In this document: positions 3,285 through 45,233 of the stretch, one piece after another
Numbering within the stretch: the first letter of the stretch is position 1
Layout: each line of letters opens with the position of its first letter
Sequence record: OR594180
Source: Escherichia phage vB_EcoM_SHAK7693
Strand: one strand, 5' to 3'
Length of the DNA stretch: 45,233 nt
Made by a program: the position numbers and the translations under genes
The notes under the pieces: model-generated
What the model saw: only the letters and a program-made list of their open reading frames with translations
What the model was told of the DNA's origin: nothing
Databases searched by the model: none

Positions 3285-3311
3285 TTTGCGTCTCCTGTTT
3301 AAGTTAACTGA

Positions 3312-3340
3312 ATAGTACCCTATTATATTGGTGTCTGCAA
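3312..3340 (-). promoter_or_regulatory. class-A promoter (TTGCAG-N17-TACTATTCA) for DnaN-like gene
   Basis: Conserved element shared with five other loci; correct spacing to ATG at 3284. Confidence 0.5.
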
Positions 3341-4890: not shown

Positions 4891-4920
4891 AAAAGGCCCC
4901 GTAAGGGGCCTTAGTTTTAG
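4891..4920. terminator. bidirectional rho-independent terminator
   Basis: AAAAGGCCCC-GTAA-GGGGCCTT then T-rich run. Confidence 0.55.
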
Positions 4921-5108: not shown

Positions 5109-5134
5109 TTTTACCTCCTGTTTAATTTAACTGA

Positions 5135-5164
5135 ATAGTACCCTATTATGTTGGTGTCTGTAAA
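5135..5164 (-). promoter_or_regulatory. class-A promoter (TTTACA-N18-TACTATTCA)
   Basis: Near-identical to element at 3312-3340. Confidence 0.5.
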
Positions 5165-5258: not shown

Positions 5259-5435
5259 CCACCTGAGCTTGTGAAGTATGAACAAGCGACCGCGGCGCGG
5301 GCGGGTAACGGAGCGGGACGTAAGTCCTGAGTGTAGTTACGCTGACGCGTTCGGAAGGGCCATACTCTATTGCTTGTGTAAAAAGTAACTGGTTTACTGA
5401 GATTACGCCGTTTCTATGTTTAAATGATAAGGACT

Positions 5436-5467
5436 AGCGCCCCGCTTTAAGGCGGGGCTTTACTTAT
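5436..5467 (+). terminator. rho-independent terminator
   Basis: GCCCCGC-TTTAAG-GCGGGGC followed by TTTACTTAT. Confidence 0.5.
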
Positions 5468-5482
5468 CGAGAAAGGAGAAAC

Positions 5483-5869
5483 ATGAATCTTAAAGCAACT
5501 GTCGTAGCGGGAGCATGTTTCATCACGCTGACTTACGCACACGGCATCTACCAGTATCGCAGCGGCTGGAACGAAGGCCGGGCGAATCTCGTTTCGCAGC
5601 AACAGCAGAAAGCACAGGCTGAGCTGACGAAGAAAACACAACGGCAGCAGCAGGATGAATCAAAGGCCGCCGCCGCTGACAACGAAGGCAAGACGAAATC
5701 AGAGGTGATTACCCGTGAAGTCGTTAAGTACATTAAAACGCCTGGCCGCAGCGTGTGCACTTTCGACGATGCTCGCGTCCTGCTCAAGTCCCACGCCGTT
5801 GCCAACGCCAATTCCATCCCCGGATACGACGATGATGCAGCCGCCGTGCAAACTGGTGCCGCCAAGTAG
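5483..5869 (+). CDS. i-spanin (Rz-like)
   Basis: N-terminal TM helix, long Q/A/K-rich coiled coil; o-spanin ORF embedded in +1 frame. Confidence 0.65.
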   Translation: MNLKATVVAGACFITLTYAHGIYQYRSGWNEGRANLVSQQQQKAQAELTKKTQRQQQDESKAAAADNEGKTKSEVITREVVKYIKTPGRSVCTFDDARVLLKSHAVANANSIPGYDDDAAAVQTGAAK

Positions 5870-5978
5870 CGACGCTGACGAGGATTTAGCTATCGACGTT
5901 CAGAACACCGAATGCGTACGGCAACTGAGGCTGAAAGTGTTCACGTTGCAGGATTACGTGAGGAATATTCTGGAATAG
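5715..5978 (+). CDS. o-spanin (Rz1-like lipoprotein)
   Basis: GTG start with RBS GAGGTG; signal peptide with lipobox LASC; Pro-rich PTPLPTPIPSP; overlaps Rz-like gene. Confidence 0.65.
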   Translation: MKSLSTLKRLAAACALSTMLASCSSPTPLPTPIPSPDTTMMQPPCKLVPPSSDADEDLAIDVQNTECVRQLRLKVFTLQDYVRNILE

Positions 5979-12314: not shown

Positions 12315-12340
12315 AAGGCCCCTTTCGGGGCCTTTTCTTA
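12315..12340. terminator. bidirectional rho-independent terminator
   Basis: GGCCCC-TTTC-GGGGCC then TTTTCTTA. Confidence 0.55.
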
Positions 12341-14284: not shown

Positions 14285-14325
14285 GGTGTAGCTCCTGTTT
14301 GAGTTAACATTGTTGGTGTAAGTGA

Positions 14326-14354
14326 ATAGTATCCTATTATGTTGGGGTGCGCAA
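14326..14354 (-). promoter_or_regulatory. class-A promoter (TTGCGC-N17-TACTATTCA) for antisense island
   Basis: Conserved element upstream of island. Confidence 0.5.
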
Positions 14355-32099: not shown

Positions 32100-32128
32100 A
32101 CTATAATAGCTAACTATTCAGGTGTCAA
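32100..32128 (-). promoter_or_regulatory. class-B promoter (TTGACA-N17-TATAGT)
   Basis: Consensus -35; spacer TGAATAGTTAGCTAT. Confidence 0.45.
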
Positions 32129-34975: not shown

Positions 34976-35004
34976 ACTATAATAGCGAACTATTCACATG
35001 TCAA
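34976..35004 (-). promoter_or_regulatory. class-B promoter (TTGACA-N17-TATAGT)
   Basis: Consensus hexamers; divergent from HTH regulator gene. Confidence 0.45.
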
Positions 35005-35009
35005 TGGGC

Positions 35010-35045
35010 TTTTCTAAAATAATTAATATGGTACTATTCACATAT
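35010..35045 (+). promoter_or_regulatory. class-A-like element (TACTATTCA) upstream of HTH regulator gene
   Basis: -10-like TACTAT with TTCA; weak -35. Confidence 0.35.
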
Positions 35046-38764: not shown

Positions 38765-38793
38765 TTGCACACCCCAATATAATAGGATACTAT
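38765..38793 (+). promoter_or_regulatory. class-A promoter (TTGCAC-N17-TACTATTCA)
   Basis: Conserved element; extra AACTATTC half-site about 20 bp upstream. Confidence 0.5.
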
Positions 38794-38827
38794 TCACTTA
38801 TCGGAACGAGACAGAGGAGTTGGGGTT

Positions 38828-39291: not shown

Positions 39292-39447
39292 ATGAGAGAA
39301 GCATTCGAACGGTGGGCCGTCGTCGAGGGTCTGCCCGTTAATAAGGGTTCGAAGAAAGAGTACCTGAACGTTAAGACGCGTCTCGCGTGGCGGGCGTGGA
39401 AAGCTGGTGTGTTGTCTGTTGTGTTGTCTGTTGCGAATCCGAGGTGA
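39292..39447 (+). CDS. hypothetical small protein (51 aa) containing 12-bp tandem duplication
   Basis: Hand-translated; GTGTTGTCTGTT x2 encodes VLSVVLSV. Confidence 0.35.
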   Translation: MREAFERWAVVEGLPVNKGSKKEYLNVKTRLAWRAWKAGVLSVVLSVANPR

Positions 39448-39807: not shown

Positions 39808-39836
39808 TTGCACACTGGGATAGAATAGGCTACTAT
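39808..39836 (+). promoter_or_regulatory. class-A promoter (TTGCAC-N17-TACTATTCA)
   Basis: Conserved element. Confidence 0.5.
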
Positions 39837-39969
39837 TCATTTACACGAACGAGGGGGGAGACGGAATATGATTCCTGGGCATTAGGCGAACTGGTAGATG
39901 CTTACGAAATAATGGGTAGCACTTCGGTGCGCGACGGTGACACTAAAGCGATAAAAATGGGGGTTGAGG

Positions 39970-43072: not shown

Positions 43073-43101
43073 TTGACTATTATCCTGGACCCTATTATAT
43101 T
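43073..43101 (+). promoter_or_regulatory. sigma70-like promoter (TTGACT-N17-TATATT)
   Basis: Near-consensus hexamers with 17-bp spacer. Confidence 0.5.
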
Positions 43102-43133: not shown

Positions 43134-43283
43134 ATGAAAATCACAGATATCGATGCATTCGAAGACGCACAACTGATGGCACGTATCGCTGTTAGTAACC
43201 TGAGCTGCAATATCCCGGCGGATGCGTTCTGGTCCGCTGCGATGCAGACCCTTAAAGCAGCTTATGCAGGAGAGAAGAAATGA
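43134..43283 (+). CDS. hypothetical small protein (49 aa)
   Basis: RBS GGAG; first of a chain of overlapping small ORFs. Confidence 0.35.
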   Translation: MKITDIDAFEDAQLMARIAVSNLSCNIPADAFWSAAMQTLKAAYAGEKK

Positions 43284-43435
43284 GTGAACAAGGTCAAGTA
43301 AGCCCGCCATTACAAGTAGGCCGTAAAGTCAGTAACACCCCGTTTCCGACACGCGAGGAACTGATGAAACGTAACAGTTTCCCGGGGCCAGACAAGAACA
43401 AGTATCTCAATCGCATGTGGGGAGAGAAGAAATGA
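43280..43435 (+). CDS. hypothetical small protein (51 aa)
   Basis: ATGA overlap with previous ORF. Confidence 0.35.
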   Translation: MSEQGQVSPPLQVGRKVSNTPFPTREELMKRNSFPGPDKNKYLNRMWGEKK

Positions 43436-43605
43436 CTAACAACGAATACGAGAAAGCATGCGTAGAATCGGCGCTAGGTATGTACGCTATTGAAGAGTGT
43501 GACAAGACGATTGCCGAATTAGAAAAGGCGTTATATGTGGTACAGGAGCATCGTCGTGAACTGATCAACCGCTTCAACCTGAACAAAGGAGCCACTAATG
43601 CCTAA
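43432..43605 (+). CDS. hypothetical small protein (57 aa)
   Basis: ATGA overlap; track ORF 43417-43605. Confidence 0.4.
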   Translation: MTNNEYEKACVESALGMYAIEECDKTIAELEKALYVVQEHRRELINRFNLNKGATNA

Positions 43606-43837
43606 AATCACAATCTCATCACTTGAGCGCCGTATTCTGGTGCTTGAGTCGGAGAAACAGACGTTAGGCGGGCAACTGTCAATTAACGGTGAGTTTCAAC
43701 TGGAGGCGTTTAAGTTGTTACTTGATAAGTTGAAAGCGGACGAAAAGCCTTGTGAGCACGATTACTACATACGTGTTGTTGGCGGGTCACGACGTATCAC
43801 ATGCCTGAAATGCGGTAAAGCGTATGGGGACGCCTGA
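43598..43837 (+). CDS. hypothetical protein with C-terminal CxxC...CxxC zinc-ribbon-like motif
   Basis: CEHDYY...CLKCG. Confidence 0.4.
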   Translation: MPKITISSLERRILVLESEKQTLGGQLSINGEFQLEAFKLLLDKLKADEKPCEHDYYIRVVGGSRRITCLKCGKAYGDA

Positions 43838-44006
43838 ACCAGTAATTATCGATGGCGTCCTGTGGAAACCTTACTCGGTCAACCACATCGACGCCGACGG
43901 GAAGAAGTTCAGCTTCTACATTTTTGCAATCAGCCGAGAGCACGCCGCTTGTGTGGTTGACGATATAAGAGAAACGGCGTGGTTGGGCGACGAGATAGTG
44001 GGGTAA
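43824..44006 (+). CDS. hypothetical protein (60 aa)
   Basis: Overlaps neighbours; complete ORF. Confidence 0.4.
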   Translation: MGTPEPVIIDGVLWKPYSVNHIDADGKKFSFYIFAISREHAACVVDDIRETAWLGDEIVG

Positions 44007-44008
44007 AT

Positions 44009-44179
44009 ATGTTCAGTGACATCAACGCAGCAATCGAAGAAGCAATCTGGCGTCGCTACAACGGTGAGCAACAGCGGCACTTCTGCCTGGTGCAACGCGG
44101 TAACATGGTTGCGGTAGTGCAGGACCGCGATAACAAGTATCCGAATGCGATGTGGACGACGAGGAATTTCGTAGGATGA
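44009..44179 (+). CDS. hypothetical small protein (56 aa)
   Basis: RBS GTGGGG before ATG 44009. Confidence 0.35.
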   Translation: MFSDINAAIEEAIWRRYNGEQQRHFCLVQRGNMVAVVQDRDNKYPNAMWTTRNFVG

Positions 44180-44412
44180 TTACCAGCATTCCGAACCTGA
44201 TTAAAGAATTCGGCACGATGGCCGAGACATGCCGACAAACCGGCATCAACGAAATGACCATCGCCAAATACAGTAAAGACGTCGATTGCGAGCGCCATGT
44301 AATTTATAACAATCGTCTGATGACGCACGTTAAGACAAGCCCGGTGTTATTCACGCGCCGGGGTATCACTAAAACAGAGCAACGTATTGCTAAAGAGGAG
44401 AGTGAGGAGTGA
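44176..44412 (+). CDS. small HTH-like protein (78 aa)
   Basis: AETCRQTGINEMTIAKY helix-turn-helix-like; ATGA overlap. Confidence 0.35.
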   Translation: MITSIPNLIKEFGTMAETCRQTGINEMTIAKYSKDVDCERHVIYNNRLMTHVKTSPVLFTRRGITKTEQRIAKEESEE

Positions 44413-44563
44413 AAAAGTTAACTGTCTACTGGAAAACCGGCGCTACGTCAGAACTCGATGTTTTCAGTGTAACGCAGTGTGAGAAGTTCTGGTGCGCAGA
44501 AACATTCAACGGAGAAGTGAGAATACCAATCGCACTGGTAGACGGCGGCGATATAACCGAATA
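44408..44563 (+). CDS. hypothetical small protein (51 aa)
   Basis: GTG start overlapping previous stop (GTGA); hand-translated. Confidence 0.3.
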
Positions 44564-44573
44564 GTCACACCAC

Positions 44574-44598
44574 AAGCCCTCTACGGAGGGCTTTTCTG
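44574..44598 (+). terminator. rho-independent terminator
   Basis: AGCCCTC-TACG-GAGGGCT then TTTCTGT. Confidence 0.5.
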
Positions 44599-44691
44599 TA
44601 CATCCTGCCTAATCCCCTTATATAATCCCTTTAGACGCGTAGGGCGCGTCTGGTGCGCTCTGATGGTCAGACGCATATGCAAGGGGGTTCT

Positions 44692-45233
44692 ATGAAGCTG
44701 AAACTTAAGCGGCCATCGCCAGAGGTGGTGCAAGCTGCGCATGAAGAAGCTGTTAGCGCAAACCGTCGCCGTAAACGACCGCGCGGTAAACAGAGTCTTT
44801 ATCAATCATCCCGTAATTCCGCCGCGCTGTGGGACCCGGACTATTGCGACGCGTTAATCGAGTTCTTCGACCGCACGTCTTGGGAGCTTGTGCCTACGTC
44901 CAAGGGTGACGAACGCCCGCTGATTCAGGATAAGCCCCCGTCACTGGCCCGCTTCGCCTTACACATCGGCGTAACTATCCCTATTATTAAGCTGTGGTTG
45001 CGTGAGATTCCGGCGTTTGCAGAAGCCTATGAAACCGCTCAGGCGCTGGAAGAGGCGTATTTCACTGAGACAGGCGCTGCCGGTATCTCCGCTACGTTTG
45101 CTGCGGTTAAGCTGGGCTTAAGCAAAGAGAAACCTGTTGAATCCTCCGAAGAAACTGCGCCGACTGAGATTGTGTTCACCGTAGCGGAGCCGGTAGGTAA
45201 AATCGTTACCACGAACATGGGTGAGGTAGGGGA
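44692..45233 (+). CDS. putative terminase small subunit (3'-truncated by window end)
   Basis: RBS AAGGGGG; HTH-like ARFALHIGVTIPIIKLWLREIPAF; last gene before terL assuming a circularly permuted genome. Confidence 0.45.
   Translation, partial: MKLKLKRPSPEVVQAAHEEAVSANRRRKRPRGKQSLYQSSRNSAALWDPDYCDALIEFFDRTSWELVPTSKGDERPLIQDKPPSLARFALHIGVTIPIIKLWLREIPAFAEAYETAQALEEAYFTETGAAGISATFAAVKLGLSKEKPVESSEETAPTEIVFTVAEPVGKIVTTNMGEVG

Follow-up and report, generated by a model that had tools for sequence, protein, structure and literature searches.

A conserved double hairpin, probably a 5' leader RNA, before the terminase genes of Escherichia phage vB_EcoM_SHAK7693 and related siphophages

Does the palindromic region directly in front of the terminase small subunit gene (terS) of Escherichia phage vB_EcoM_SHAK7693 act in DNA packaging, or does it act in the mRNA predicted to begin there? 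We analysed the 45,233-nucleotide (nt) stretch of sequence record OR594180 (hereafter, the window), which contains the whole genome, in circular representation, of an E. coli siphophage resembling Kagunavirus (Guernseyvirinae). The original prediction had proposed that this region is a pac or cos-proximal recognition site or, alternatively, a translational operator. Comparison with related phages led us to favour another reading, to which we assign a probability of roughly 55%: a promoter followed by a structured, cis-acting 5' leader RNA of the mRNA for terS, the large terminase (terL) and the portal protein, which would stabilise the message, offer its loops for docking and silence read-through transcripts. 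The argument rests on the following features.

44597–44626, + strand: predicted sigma-70-type promoter with −35 TGTACA (44597–44602), an 18-nt spacer and −10 TATAAT (44621–44626).
A44633, + strand: predicted transcription start, placed by promoter geometry at the seventh nt past the −10 hexamer, the first base of the AGACGCG arm.
44632–44652, + strand: hairpin H1, 9 bp (U-AGACGCG-U / G-CGCGUCU-G) with the triloop AGG at 44641–44643.
44653–44676, + strand: hairpin H2, lower stem GUGCG/CGCAU, bulged C44658, upper stem UCUGA/UCAGA and the triloop UGG at 44664–44666.
44677–44691, + strand: A/U-rich linker and Shine-Dalgarno (SD) sequence AAGGGGG (44681–44687), predicted to be single-stranded in promoter-initiated RNA.
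44692–45233, + strand, wrapping past the window end: terS, 181 amino acids.

When the 45-nt core at 44632–44676 was folded as RNA, it reached −23.5 kcal/mol (z = −3.7), and none of 200 dinucleotide shuffles was as good; folded as DNA, it gave z = −4.9 against dinucleotide shuffles. The core of H1 had a folding energy of −11 kcal/mol (z = −4.2), and the whole 111-nt leader was modestly unusual (z = −2.2). The minimum-energy structure and the conserved structure both consist of two adjacent hairpins with 3-nt loops, lying side by side. The apex of H2, GAUGGUC at 44662–44668, is nearly invariant among relatives. The double hairpin is present once in the genome, at 44629–44694, where a covariance model scored 81.8 bits. 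Rfam 15 gave no match overlapping 44600–44690, even at E ≤ 10, and none in the homologous leaders of eight other lineages at E ≤ 1. Nor did we find a prior description of the motif in the literature on the genera that carry it.

The close relatives of TerS at 50 IMG/VR loci form a Kagunavirus group and a Jerseyvirus group. The leader is almost identical within the Kagunavirus group, whereas in the Jerseyvirus group it has changed in a structured way. There, the upper stem of H2 is UAUGA/UCAUA instead of UCUGA/UCAGA, and H1 takes the form AGACGCUC-AGG-GGGYGUCU; in the lower stem of H2, GUGCG/CGCAU alternates with AUGCG/CGCAU. Searches by tblastn retrieved TerS homologues at 25–35% identity from Salmonella phage TS6, Serratia phage Smarc3 and a Dhillonvirus. 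All three have the same upstream layout, namely a terminator, a −35 hexamer or an extended −10 element, a perfect TATAAT, a C-rich discriminator of 6–8 nt, H1, H2, the SD sequence and the ATG. Their H1 stems are quite different (GAGGUGCGC/GCGCGUCUC, AAGGCCC/GGGCUUU or AGAUGGC/GCCGUCU), and the apex of H2 is again GAUGGUC. A covariance model built from 19 representatives (R1) detected the element at all of the tested Kagunavirus, Jerseyvirus, TS6-like, Dhillonvirus and Serratia loci, and at 10 of 13 loci from further metagenomic TerS lineages. The double hairpin was also present in six of seven further isolates (Salmonella phage SenTO17, Cornellvirus FSL SP-031, Hafnia phage TS33, Enterobacter phage phiEap-2, Klebsiella phage 37P2 and Pantoea phage AH01). 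Where the apex of H2 varies, its pairing is retained: UAUGGUA in 37P2, GGUGGUC in AH01 and GGUGGCC in lineage L134, which has 61% TerS identity and the same architecture. The sigma-70 pause element GATGGT was considered and rejected, as it is not retained in L134 (GGTGGC).

The motif does not accompany every member of the wider terS family. Lineage L140 has no intergenic region before terS and lacks it. In Vibrio phage NF (L153, terS at 559), the terminator-promoter arrangement is kept (TGGTATAAT), but the leader is A/T-rich and unstructured; the hairpins are therefore not obligatory for this gene family. In another group without the motif, L123–L131, an extended −10 promoter leads into a hairpin with a GNRA loop and a U-run before terS. 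At the loci L124, L126, L127, L128, L131 and L133 (e.g., L124 at about 960–1035), the extended −10 element is TGTTATAAT or TGCTATAAT, the hairpin is GCGGAUC-GAAA-GAGCCGC, and the U-run stands directly before the SD sequence. In this distant TerS group, the arrangement resembles a terminator or attenuator placed in the leader of the packaging genes. Among the 80 matches listed in a pattern search of IMG/VR, the model confirmed 25, all in the same phage groups; the other 55 were chance matches without model support.

The pattern of sequence change points to a single-stranded, mRNA-sense structure. All 27 representatives fold individually into two triloop hairpins as their minimum-energy structure. 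In a loop-anchored alignment of 21 distinct sequences, covering seven pairs of H1 and nine of H2, compensatory changes on both sides were observed in 13 of 16 pairs (six of the seven loop-proximal H1 pairs and seven of the nine H2 pairs), with as many as five kinds of pair at a single position. Covariation scored 0.83, compared with 0.26 in shuffles (0/500 reached 0.83) and no more than 0.18 when the partners were slid. The loops, by contrast, are nearly constant and follow the pattern D-G-R: AGG, UGG, AGA, GGG or UGA in H1, and UGG, rarely UGA, in H2. They remain unchanged while TerS drops to ~27% identity, with a very divergent N-terminus. Because the stems change with compensation while the loops stay, the element resembles a single-stranded hairpin rather than a double-stranded DNA site for a protein. 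The + strand core was the more stable one in 15 of 16 lineage representatives, and G-U pairs numbered 32 in the + strand folds versus 3 in the − strand folds.

The original prediction of a structured region thus holds beyond chance: more than 15 lineages, with 45 distinct sequences among them, share the two hairpins and show these compensatory changes. The terminator, the TATAAT box, the ATG and all repeats it listed lie exactly where it had placed them, the repeats being the following.

44633–44651, + strand: AGACGCG-TAGGG-CGCGTCT, a perfect 7-bp inverted repeat.
44646–44652 and 44668–44674, + strand: GCGTCTG and CAGACGC.
44659–44671, + strand: TCTGA-TGG-TCAGA.

Their description as nested, however, does not carry over to the conserved structure, in which the hairpins stand side by side. 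The pairing of GCGTCTG with CAGACGC is real in the window, but it is specific to Kagunavirus: in Jerseyvirus it is disrupted (CATACGC), and no other lineage has it. The direct repeat AGACGCR likewise occurs in Kagunavirus only.

The register of the hairpins relative to the promoter is fixed as well: in each of the 45 distinct sequences, the first pair of H1 lies 6–11 nt, mostly 7–8 nt, past the −10 hexamer, which corresponds to +1/+2 of the predicted transcript. Across lineages, H2 follows H1 with a gap of 0–3 nt, and the hairpins end 15–25 nt 5' of the terS start. The promoter hexamers of the window match the consensus at 10 of 12 positions. Jerseyvirus retains the hexamers and their spacing with a diverged spacer sequence, and all other lineages have a perfect TATAAT with either a TTGCCN −35 hexamer or an extended −10 element. 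The −35 hexamer TGTACA, like the 9-bp complementarity to the SD sequence described below, adds to what the original prediction contained. Upstream, the promoter borders on a terminator.

44574–44593, with the tail TTCTGT to 44599, + strand: intrinsic terminator AAGCCCTC-TACG-GAGGGCTT, 8 bp, 100% complementary.

This terminator closes the preceding unit of small open reading frames (ORFs), its U-tract abuts the −35 hexamer of the terS promoter, and it is kept at the same place in most related lineages. H1 and H2 themselves do not have the form of an intrinsic terminator or attenuator, as H1 is followed by GGUGCG and H2 by AUGCAAGG, without a U-run; a terminator scan of 44600–44700 found none. 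The discriminator between the −10 hexamer and +1 (44621–44632 and homologous positions) is C-rich in nearly all lineages (CCCTTT, CCCCTAA, CCCCCTT, CGCCTGA). Besides its complementarity to the SD sequence, it could make the promoter sensitive to open-complex stability, that is, to guanosine tetraphosphate (ppGpp)/DksA or the initiating nucleoside triphosphate.

The gene downstream had been taken for the terminase small subunit, and we can confirm this: its product matches phrog_3064 ("terminase") with E = 4e-73, relatives of TerS match PF16677 GP3_package, and the gene overlaps terL. Window base 1 is the A of the terL ATG (1–3; 416 amino acids, phrog_2, Terminase_6N-type). The last terS codon, GAA, uses this base, and its stop codon TGA at 2–4 overlaps the terL start as ATGA. 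No strong terminator follows within terS-terL-portal before the bidirectional terminator at 2739–2758, which lies opposite a convergent gene on the − strand. What the double hairpin heads is therefore a short packaging operon under separate control, and not the whole late region.

Taken together, the motif is an undescribed, widely conserved RNA element of a familiar kind, a 5' leader. We propose that host RNA polymerase with sigma-70 starts at about A44633 and that the operon runs through the window junction to the terminator at 2739–2758. The first 45 transcribed nt would fold into H1 and H2, leaving the A/U-rich linker, the SD sequence and the AUG single-stranded; in the centroid structure of the promoter-initiated RNA, 44677–44710 are unpaired. 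E. coli mRNAs are stabilised by 5'-terminal stem-loops preceded by fewer than about 2–4 unpaired nt, as in the ompA leader, and RppH and RNase E act in a 5'-end-dependent manner. With the predicted start at A44633, the leader would stay within about two unpaired nt. With 0–1 unpaired nt, the paired terminus would shield the triphosphate end from RppH and 5'-end-dependent RNase E and so stabilise the terminase/portal message. The D-G-R triloops probably dock a trans-acting factor of host or phage origin that tunes stability or translation, because the loops hardly change while the stems change freely.

A further part of the proposal concerns RNA that enters the leader from upstream, and it involves a repeat within the promoter.

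44610–44633, + strand: 11-nt direct repeat TAATCCCCTTA / TAATCCCTTTA (TAATCCCYTTA), spanning the promoter spacer, the −10 hexamer and the discriminator.

Within this region, AAUCCCCUU (44611–44619) is complementary over 9 bp to the SD sequence AAGGGGGUU (44681–44689). As this anti-SD segment lies upstream of the predicted start, it would be present only in read-through RNA. The fold of such a longer RNA encloses H1 and H2 in a three-way junction in which the SD sequence is buried. Read-through RNA would thus be silent for terS, and only promoter-initiated transcripts would be translated. In most lineages, the segment between the −10 hexamer and H1 contains AAUCC... opposite ...GGAUU in the SD region, with AAUCCCCUU as an additional, upstream copy in Kagunavirus. 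In 9–10 of 14 lineages, the −10/discriminator is more strongly complementary to the SD region than shuffles are; the summed ΔG is −95 compared with −55 ± 7 kcal/mol, and the two segments show covarying changes (CCCC/GGGG, CCU/AGG, CGCCUG/CAGGAG). The complementarity is absent at L144 and L145, whose divergently oriented upstream genes allow no read-through. We propose the silencing of read-through transcripts only tentatively.

Several observations weigh against the leader-RNA reading. A plain stabiliser needs no conserved loops, so a stabilising role alone under-explains the motif. The +1 position is a prediction, and a search of the literature on these genera found no transcription-start data. 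The 100% pairing in the loop-anchored alignment holds by construction, since the stems were taken from each sequence's own fold, and the phylogenetic relatedness of the lineages inflates the shuffle statistics. The model-fitted alignment A3 was weaker, with 87.5% pairing and eight double-change pairs, and its Dhillonvirus rows were misregistered by one column; RNAalifold accordingly yielded a poor consensus for it, and the loop-anchored alignment was used instead. G-T wobbles are also tolerated in single-stranded DNA hairpins, so the strand bias alone is no proof of RNA. Finally, the anti-SD complementarity is missing in about one-third of the lineages, including Serratia, L134 and Dhillonvirus L122, whose upstream genes are co-directional.

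The alternative closest to our reading is a protein-dependent translational operator, in which a dimer or oligomer of TerS (by autoregulation), of another late phage protein or of a host RNA-binding protein occupies the two similar triloop hairpins and represses or activates translation of terS and, via the ATGA overlap, of terL. It overlaps with the leader-RNA reading and differs in the primary function. Two hairpins with the same D-G-R loop class on variable stems are the pattern of coat-protein and N/boxB-type sites, terS and terL are translationally coupled, and the motif co-occurs strictly with one TerS family (phrog_3064 / PF16677-related), with none outside those phages among the scan matches listed. 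However, the hairpins exclude the SD sequence and AUG of terS, which are unpaired in promoter-initiated RNA, 5–16 nt 3' of H2, so that simple occlusion is unavailable. Moreover, the loops stay constant across the divergence of TerS, no RNA-binding domain was detected in the neighbouring small ORFs, and the GGA required by CsrA/RsmA is absent from every loop, all loops being closed directly by pairs. With its alternative of a translational operator, the original prediction chose the right class, an element acting at the RNA level; an operator proper we consider unlikely. A put- or nut-like RNA would make use of the same structure differently, as the nascent double hairpin would bind the elongation complex, alone as in HK022 put or with a phage factor, and suppress downstream pausing or termination; HK022 put itself suppresses terminators downstream of it through the zinc-binding domain of the RNA polymerase beta' subunit. 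The two stem-loops without a spacer, within 1–3 nt of a sigma-70 transcript start, are reminiscent of HK022 putL, in which the first pair forms at A3 and no separate gene is needed (PMC9378689). Loops that do not vary across divergent phages would suit a host partner that is itself conserved, such as RNA polymerase; several strong terminator-like hairpins lie in the structural region on the + strand (at 2739, 4893, 5439, 7830 and 12315), and the related TerS group with a leader hairpin and U-run before terS suggests a late-leader antitermination checkpoint in some relatives. Against this stand the shortness of the unit, without a strong terminator before 2739–2758 and with a convergent − strand gene behind it, and the repeated promoter motif that the later structural modules have of their own (3309, 5132, 14323), so that long-range antitermination is not required. 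In addition, the 45 nt with near-perfect stems differ from the ~70 nt with bulges and a triplex in put, and neither put sequence similarity nor an Rfam match was found. As to nut, a boxA (CGCUCUUA-like) is not conserved: the boxA-like CGCUCU occurs in H2 of Kagunavirus only, other lineages having GCGCUA, UGCGUU or UGUUGC there, and all loops have 3 nt rather than a GNRA-like pentaloop. We regard such an antiterminator as decidedly improbable.

The remaining alternatives place the function in the DNA or in a peptide. The pac of phage SPP1 spans a region upstream of and into its terS gene, and the element stands immediately 5' of terS in phages that package by the headful mechanism; by this analogy, and given the strict link of the element to one TerS family, the original prediction of a pac or TerS recognition site is a tempting one. 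Nevertheless, we judge it highly improbable. Loops that are kept while the stems covary are the reverse of the pattern expected from a double-stranded DNA site, the wobbles (G-U/G-T) are strand-specific where a DNA site would be constrained symmetrically, the register to the promoter is fixed, and the loops are invariant despite the divergence of TerS. Furthermore, the TerS relatives match the family of P22 gp3, whose pac lies inside terS (gene 3), and by analogy the pac of these headful phages may lie inside terS as well. In the literature, headful packaging of permuted genomes has been described for Kagunavirus, Jerseyvirus and Dhillonvirus; PhageTerm detected no termini in Kagunavirus fBC-Eco01 and random ends in Jerseyvirus, and one Dhillonvirus paper reported a cos end of unrelated sequence. 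No mapped pac site was found in the literature on these genera. The proposal of a cos-proximal site finds no support either, as these genera are reported to be permuted and headful, and the leader contains no R-type direct repeats save the 11-nt pair inside the promoter. Several GenBank and IMG records start inside the leader, and we rejected these starts as physical ends because they coincide with the in-frame GTG/ATG 39 nt upstream or with conventions of the "start at terS" kind. A double-stranded DNA operator, with inverted repeats centred at about +10 and +33 through which a repressor would block the packaging promoter, could draw on the perfect 7-bp inverted repeat over +1 to +19 and on a small NinH-like DNA-binding ORF just upstream (44152–44412; weak Pfam match). 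Yet only the centres and not the half-site sequences are conserved, all imperfections are G-T on one strand, and the genes 5' of the terminator are mosaic and differ among lineages that share the motif, which leaves this option very little probability. Lastly, the AUG in the apex of H2 might open a mini-ORF whose termination at the ATGA would re-initiate terS.

44663–44695, + strand: mini-ORF encoding MVRRICKGVL, with its AUG in the H2 apex and a stop that overlaps the terS ATG; considered, but rejected as not conserved.

An AUG or GUG is present at the apex in all lineages, and TS6, L142 and L144, like the window, have a stop that overlaps the terS ATG. However, in 13 lineages the frame offset is 0, 1 or 2, the stop falls between −18 and +17 or beyond, and the length varies from 5 to 17 or more codons. 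The peptides are unrelated, they lack an SD sequence, the AUG is half buried in the stem, and the ATGA overlap arises automatically for any +2-frame ORF, as terS begins with ATGAA. A leader peptide is thus scarcely credible.

The leader RNA that we favour is obscured in many GenBank records, which start terS not at the ATG at 44692 but at an upstream in-frame codon inside H2, such as GTG 44653 in the window or an ATG/GTG at −39 to −45 in relatives. Examples are the phage Ivi coding sequence 5342–5926 (L154), the FSL SP-031 coding sequence from L152:456 and Dhillonvirus L053:706. We rejected GTG 44653 and the ATG at −39, annotated in Ivi, Bas74, SETP7 and others, as the real terS start: they lack an SD sequence, their frame varies among lineages, the changes in this region are compensatory and not synonymous, and the protein alignment begins at the downstream ATG. 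Since the frame is not conserved between lineages and no SD sequence precedes them, these N-terminal extensions probably result from misannotation, which conceals the RNA element.

The surroundings of the operon were also inspected. Phages Ivi, fFiEco03, K1ind2 and others share 91–95% identity with the window over 44400–45233. In many related genomes, the alignment to the window begins only at the terminator, with a mosaic boundary at about 44572 and different genes upstream, so that terminator, promoter, leader and terS behave as a conserved block beside a recombination hot spot. The upstream cluster of small ORFs (43134–44564) has its own sigma-70-like promoter, TTGACT-N17-TATATT at 43073, and ends at the 44574 terminator. 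An 86-amino-acid ORF directly 5' of the terminator (44152–44412, + strand) matches NinH weakly (PF06322, E = 6e-5, below cut-off) and phrog_268, of unknown function, strongly; in Salmonella phage SenTO17, a NinH-like gene is annotated at the equivalent place. In the structural region, three near-identical bidirectional terminator hairpins, AAGGCCYC-N4-GRGGCCTT at 2739–2758, 4893–4912 and 12315–12334, mark module boundaries, and two of the three face convergent − strand cassettes inserted there. The heptamer AGACGCG occurs 16 times genome-wide versus 7.4 expected, an approximately twofold excess, but its copies are scattered across coding regions, and we rejected it as a dispersed protein site. 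The same heptamer as in the H1 arms forms a perfect 10-bp palindrome, AGACGCGTCT, at 39374–39383.

An 18-nt palindrome-containing motif, TGAATAGTACCCTATTAT (TGAATAGTAcCCTATTAT; palindrome AATAG-N4-CTATT), is present in eight copies, compared with none expected, and is lacking in the terS promoter.

3309–3326, 5132–5149 and 14323–14340, + strand: 18-nt motif copies.
32103–32120, 34979–34996, 35023–35040, 38779–38796 and 39822–39839, − strand: 18-nt motif copies.

Each copy lies just ahead of a gene module, namely the later structural modules (starting at 3328, 5483 and 14463) and the replication genes on the − strand, where the copies occupy the spacer of promoters of the form TTGACA-N17-TATAGT. 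The motif probably serves a phage regulator as its operator and is built into a promoter family. For Kagunavirus fBC-Eco01, the same consensus has been published under the name "phage promoter"; despite this label, no RNA polymerase gene is annotated in these phages.

With these results, a tempting but unsupported pac assignment is removed. The terS family whose relatives, where examined, carry the element spans ~650–700 deposited phage records, among them phages developed for therapy and synthetic biology (Kagunavirus, Jerseyvirus, Dhillonvirus). The element is unannotated in these records, many of which overwrite it by a terS start placed too far upstream. If the leader controls the stability or translation of the terminase/portal mRNA, it would provide a handle for packaging-gene dosage in engineered phages and a small, clear-cut model system for protective or regulatory RNAs at the 5' end. 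If the put-like reading were true instead, the element would represent a second, structurally distinct class of polymerase-modifying cis RNA, widespread in virulent enterobacterial siphophages (Guernseyvirinae, Dhillonvirus and relatives).

Among known systems, the predicted leader resembles 5' untranslated regions of the ompA type, which consist of a hairpin at the 5' end (hp1), a second hairpin (hp2) and an open, A/U-rich segment with the single-stranded ribosome-binding region. Like these stabilisers, it would act in cis and in the mRNA strand only. It differs in the conserved D-G-R triloops of both hairpins and in its position at the packaging operon of virulent siphophages. The lambda N-boxB sites and the coat-protein operators of MS2 and Qbeta, the latter with a 3-nt loop, likewise combine variable stems with a conserved small loop, and two copies could bind a dimer. 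However, boxB has a GNRA-like pentaloop and a neighbouring boxA in place of the A/U-G-G triloops found here, and the coat-protein operators contain the regulated start codon, whereas the triloops lie 15–45 nt 5' of the AUG. The pac of P22 in gene 3 and the pacL-pacC-pacR region of SPP1 are likewise situated beside or in the small-terminase gene of a headful phage. They are, however, double-stranded DNA elements, unlike the leader with its RNA-type covariation, strand-specific wobbles and fixed start register. With HK022 putL, finally, the leader shares two adjacent stem-loops in a phage RNA, which here are predicted to start within the first 3 nt of a sigma-70 transcript as well; put, however, comprises ~70 nt with bulges, an internal loop and a stem I triplex (PMC9378689), whereas the leader described here forms its two triloop hairpins from 45 nt with a single bulged C.

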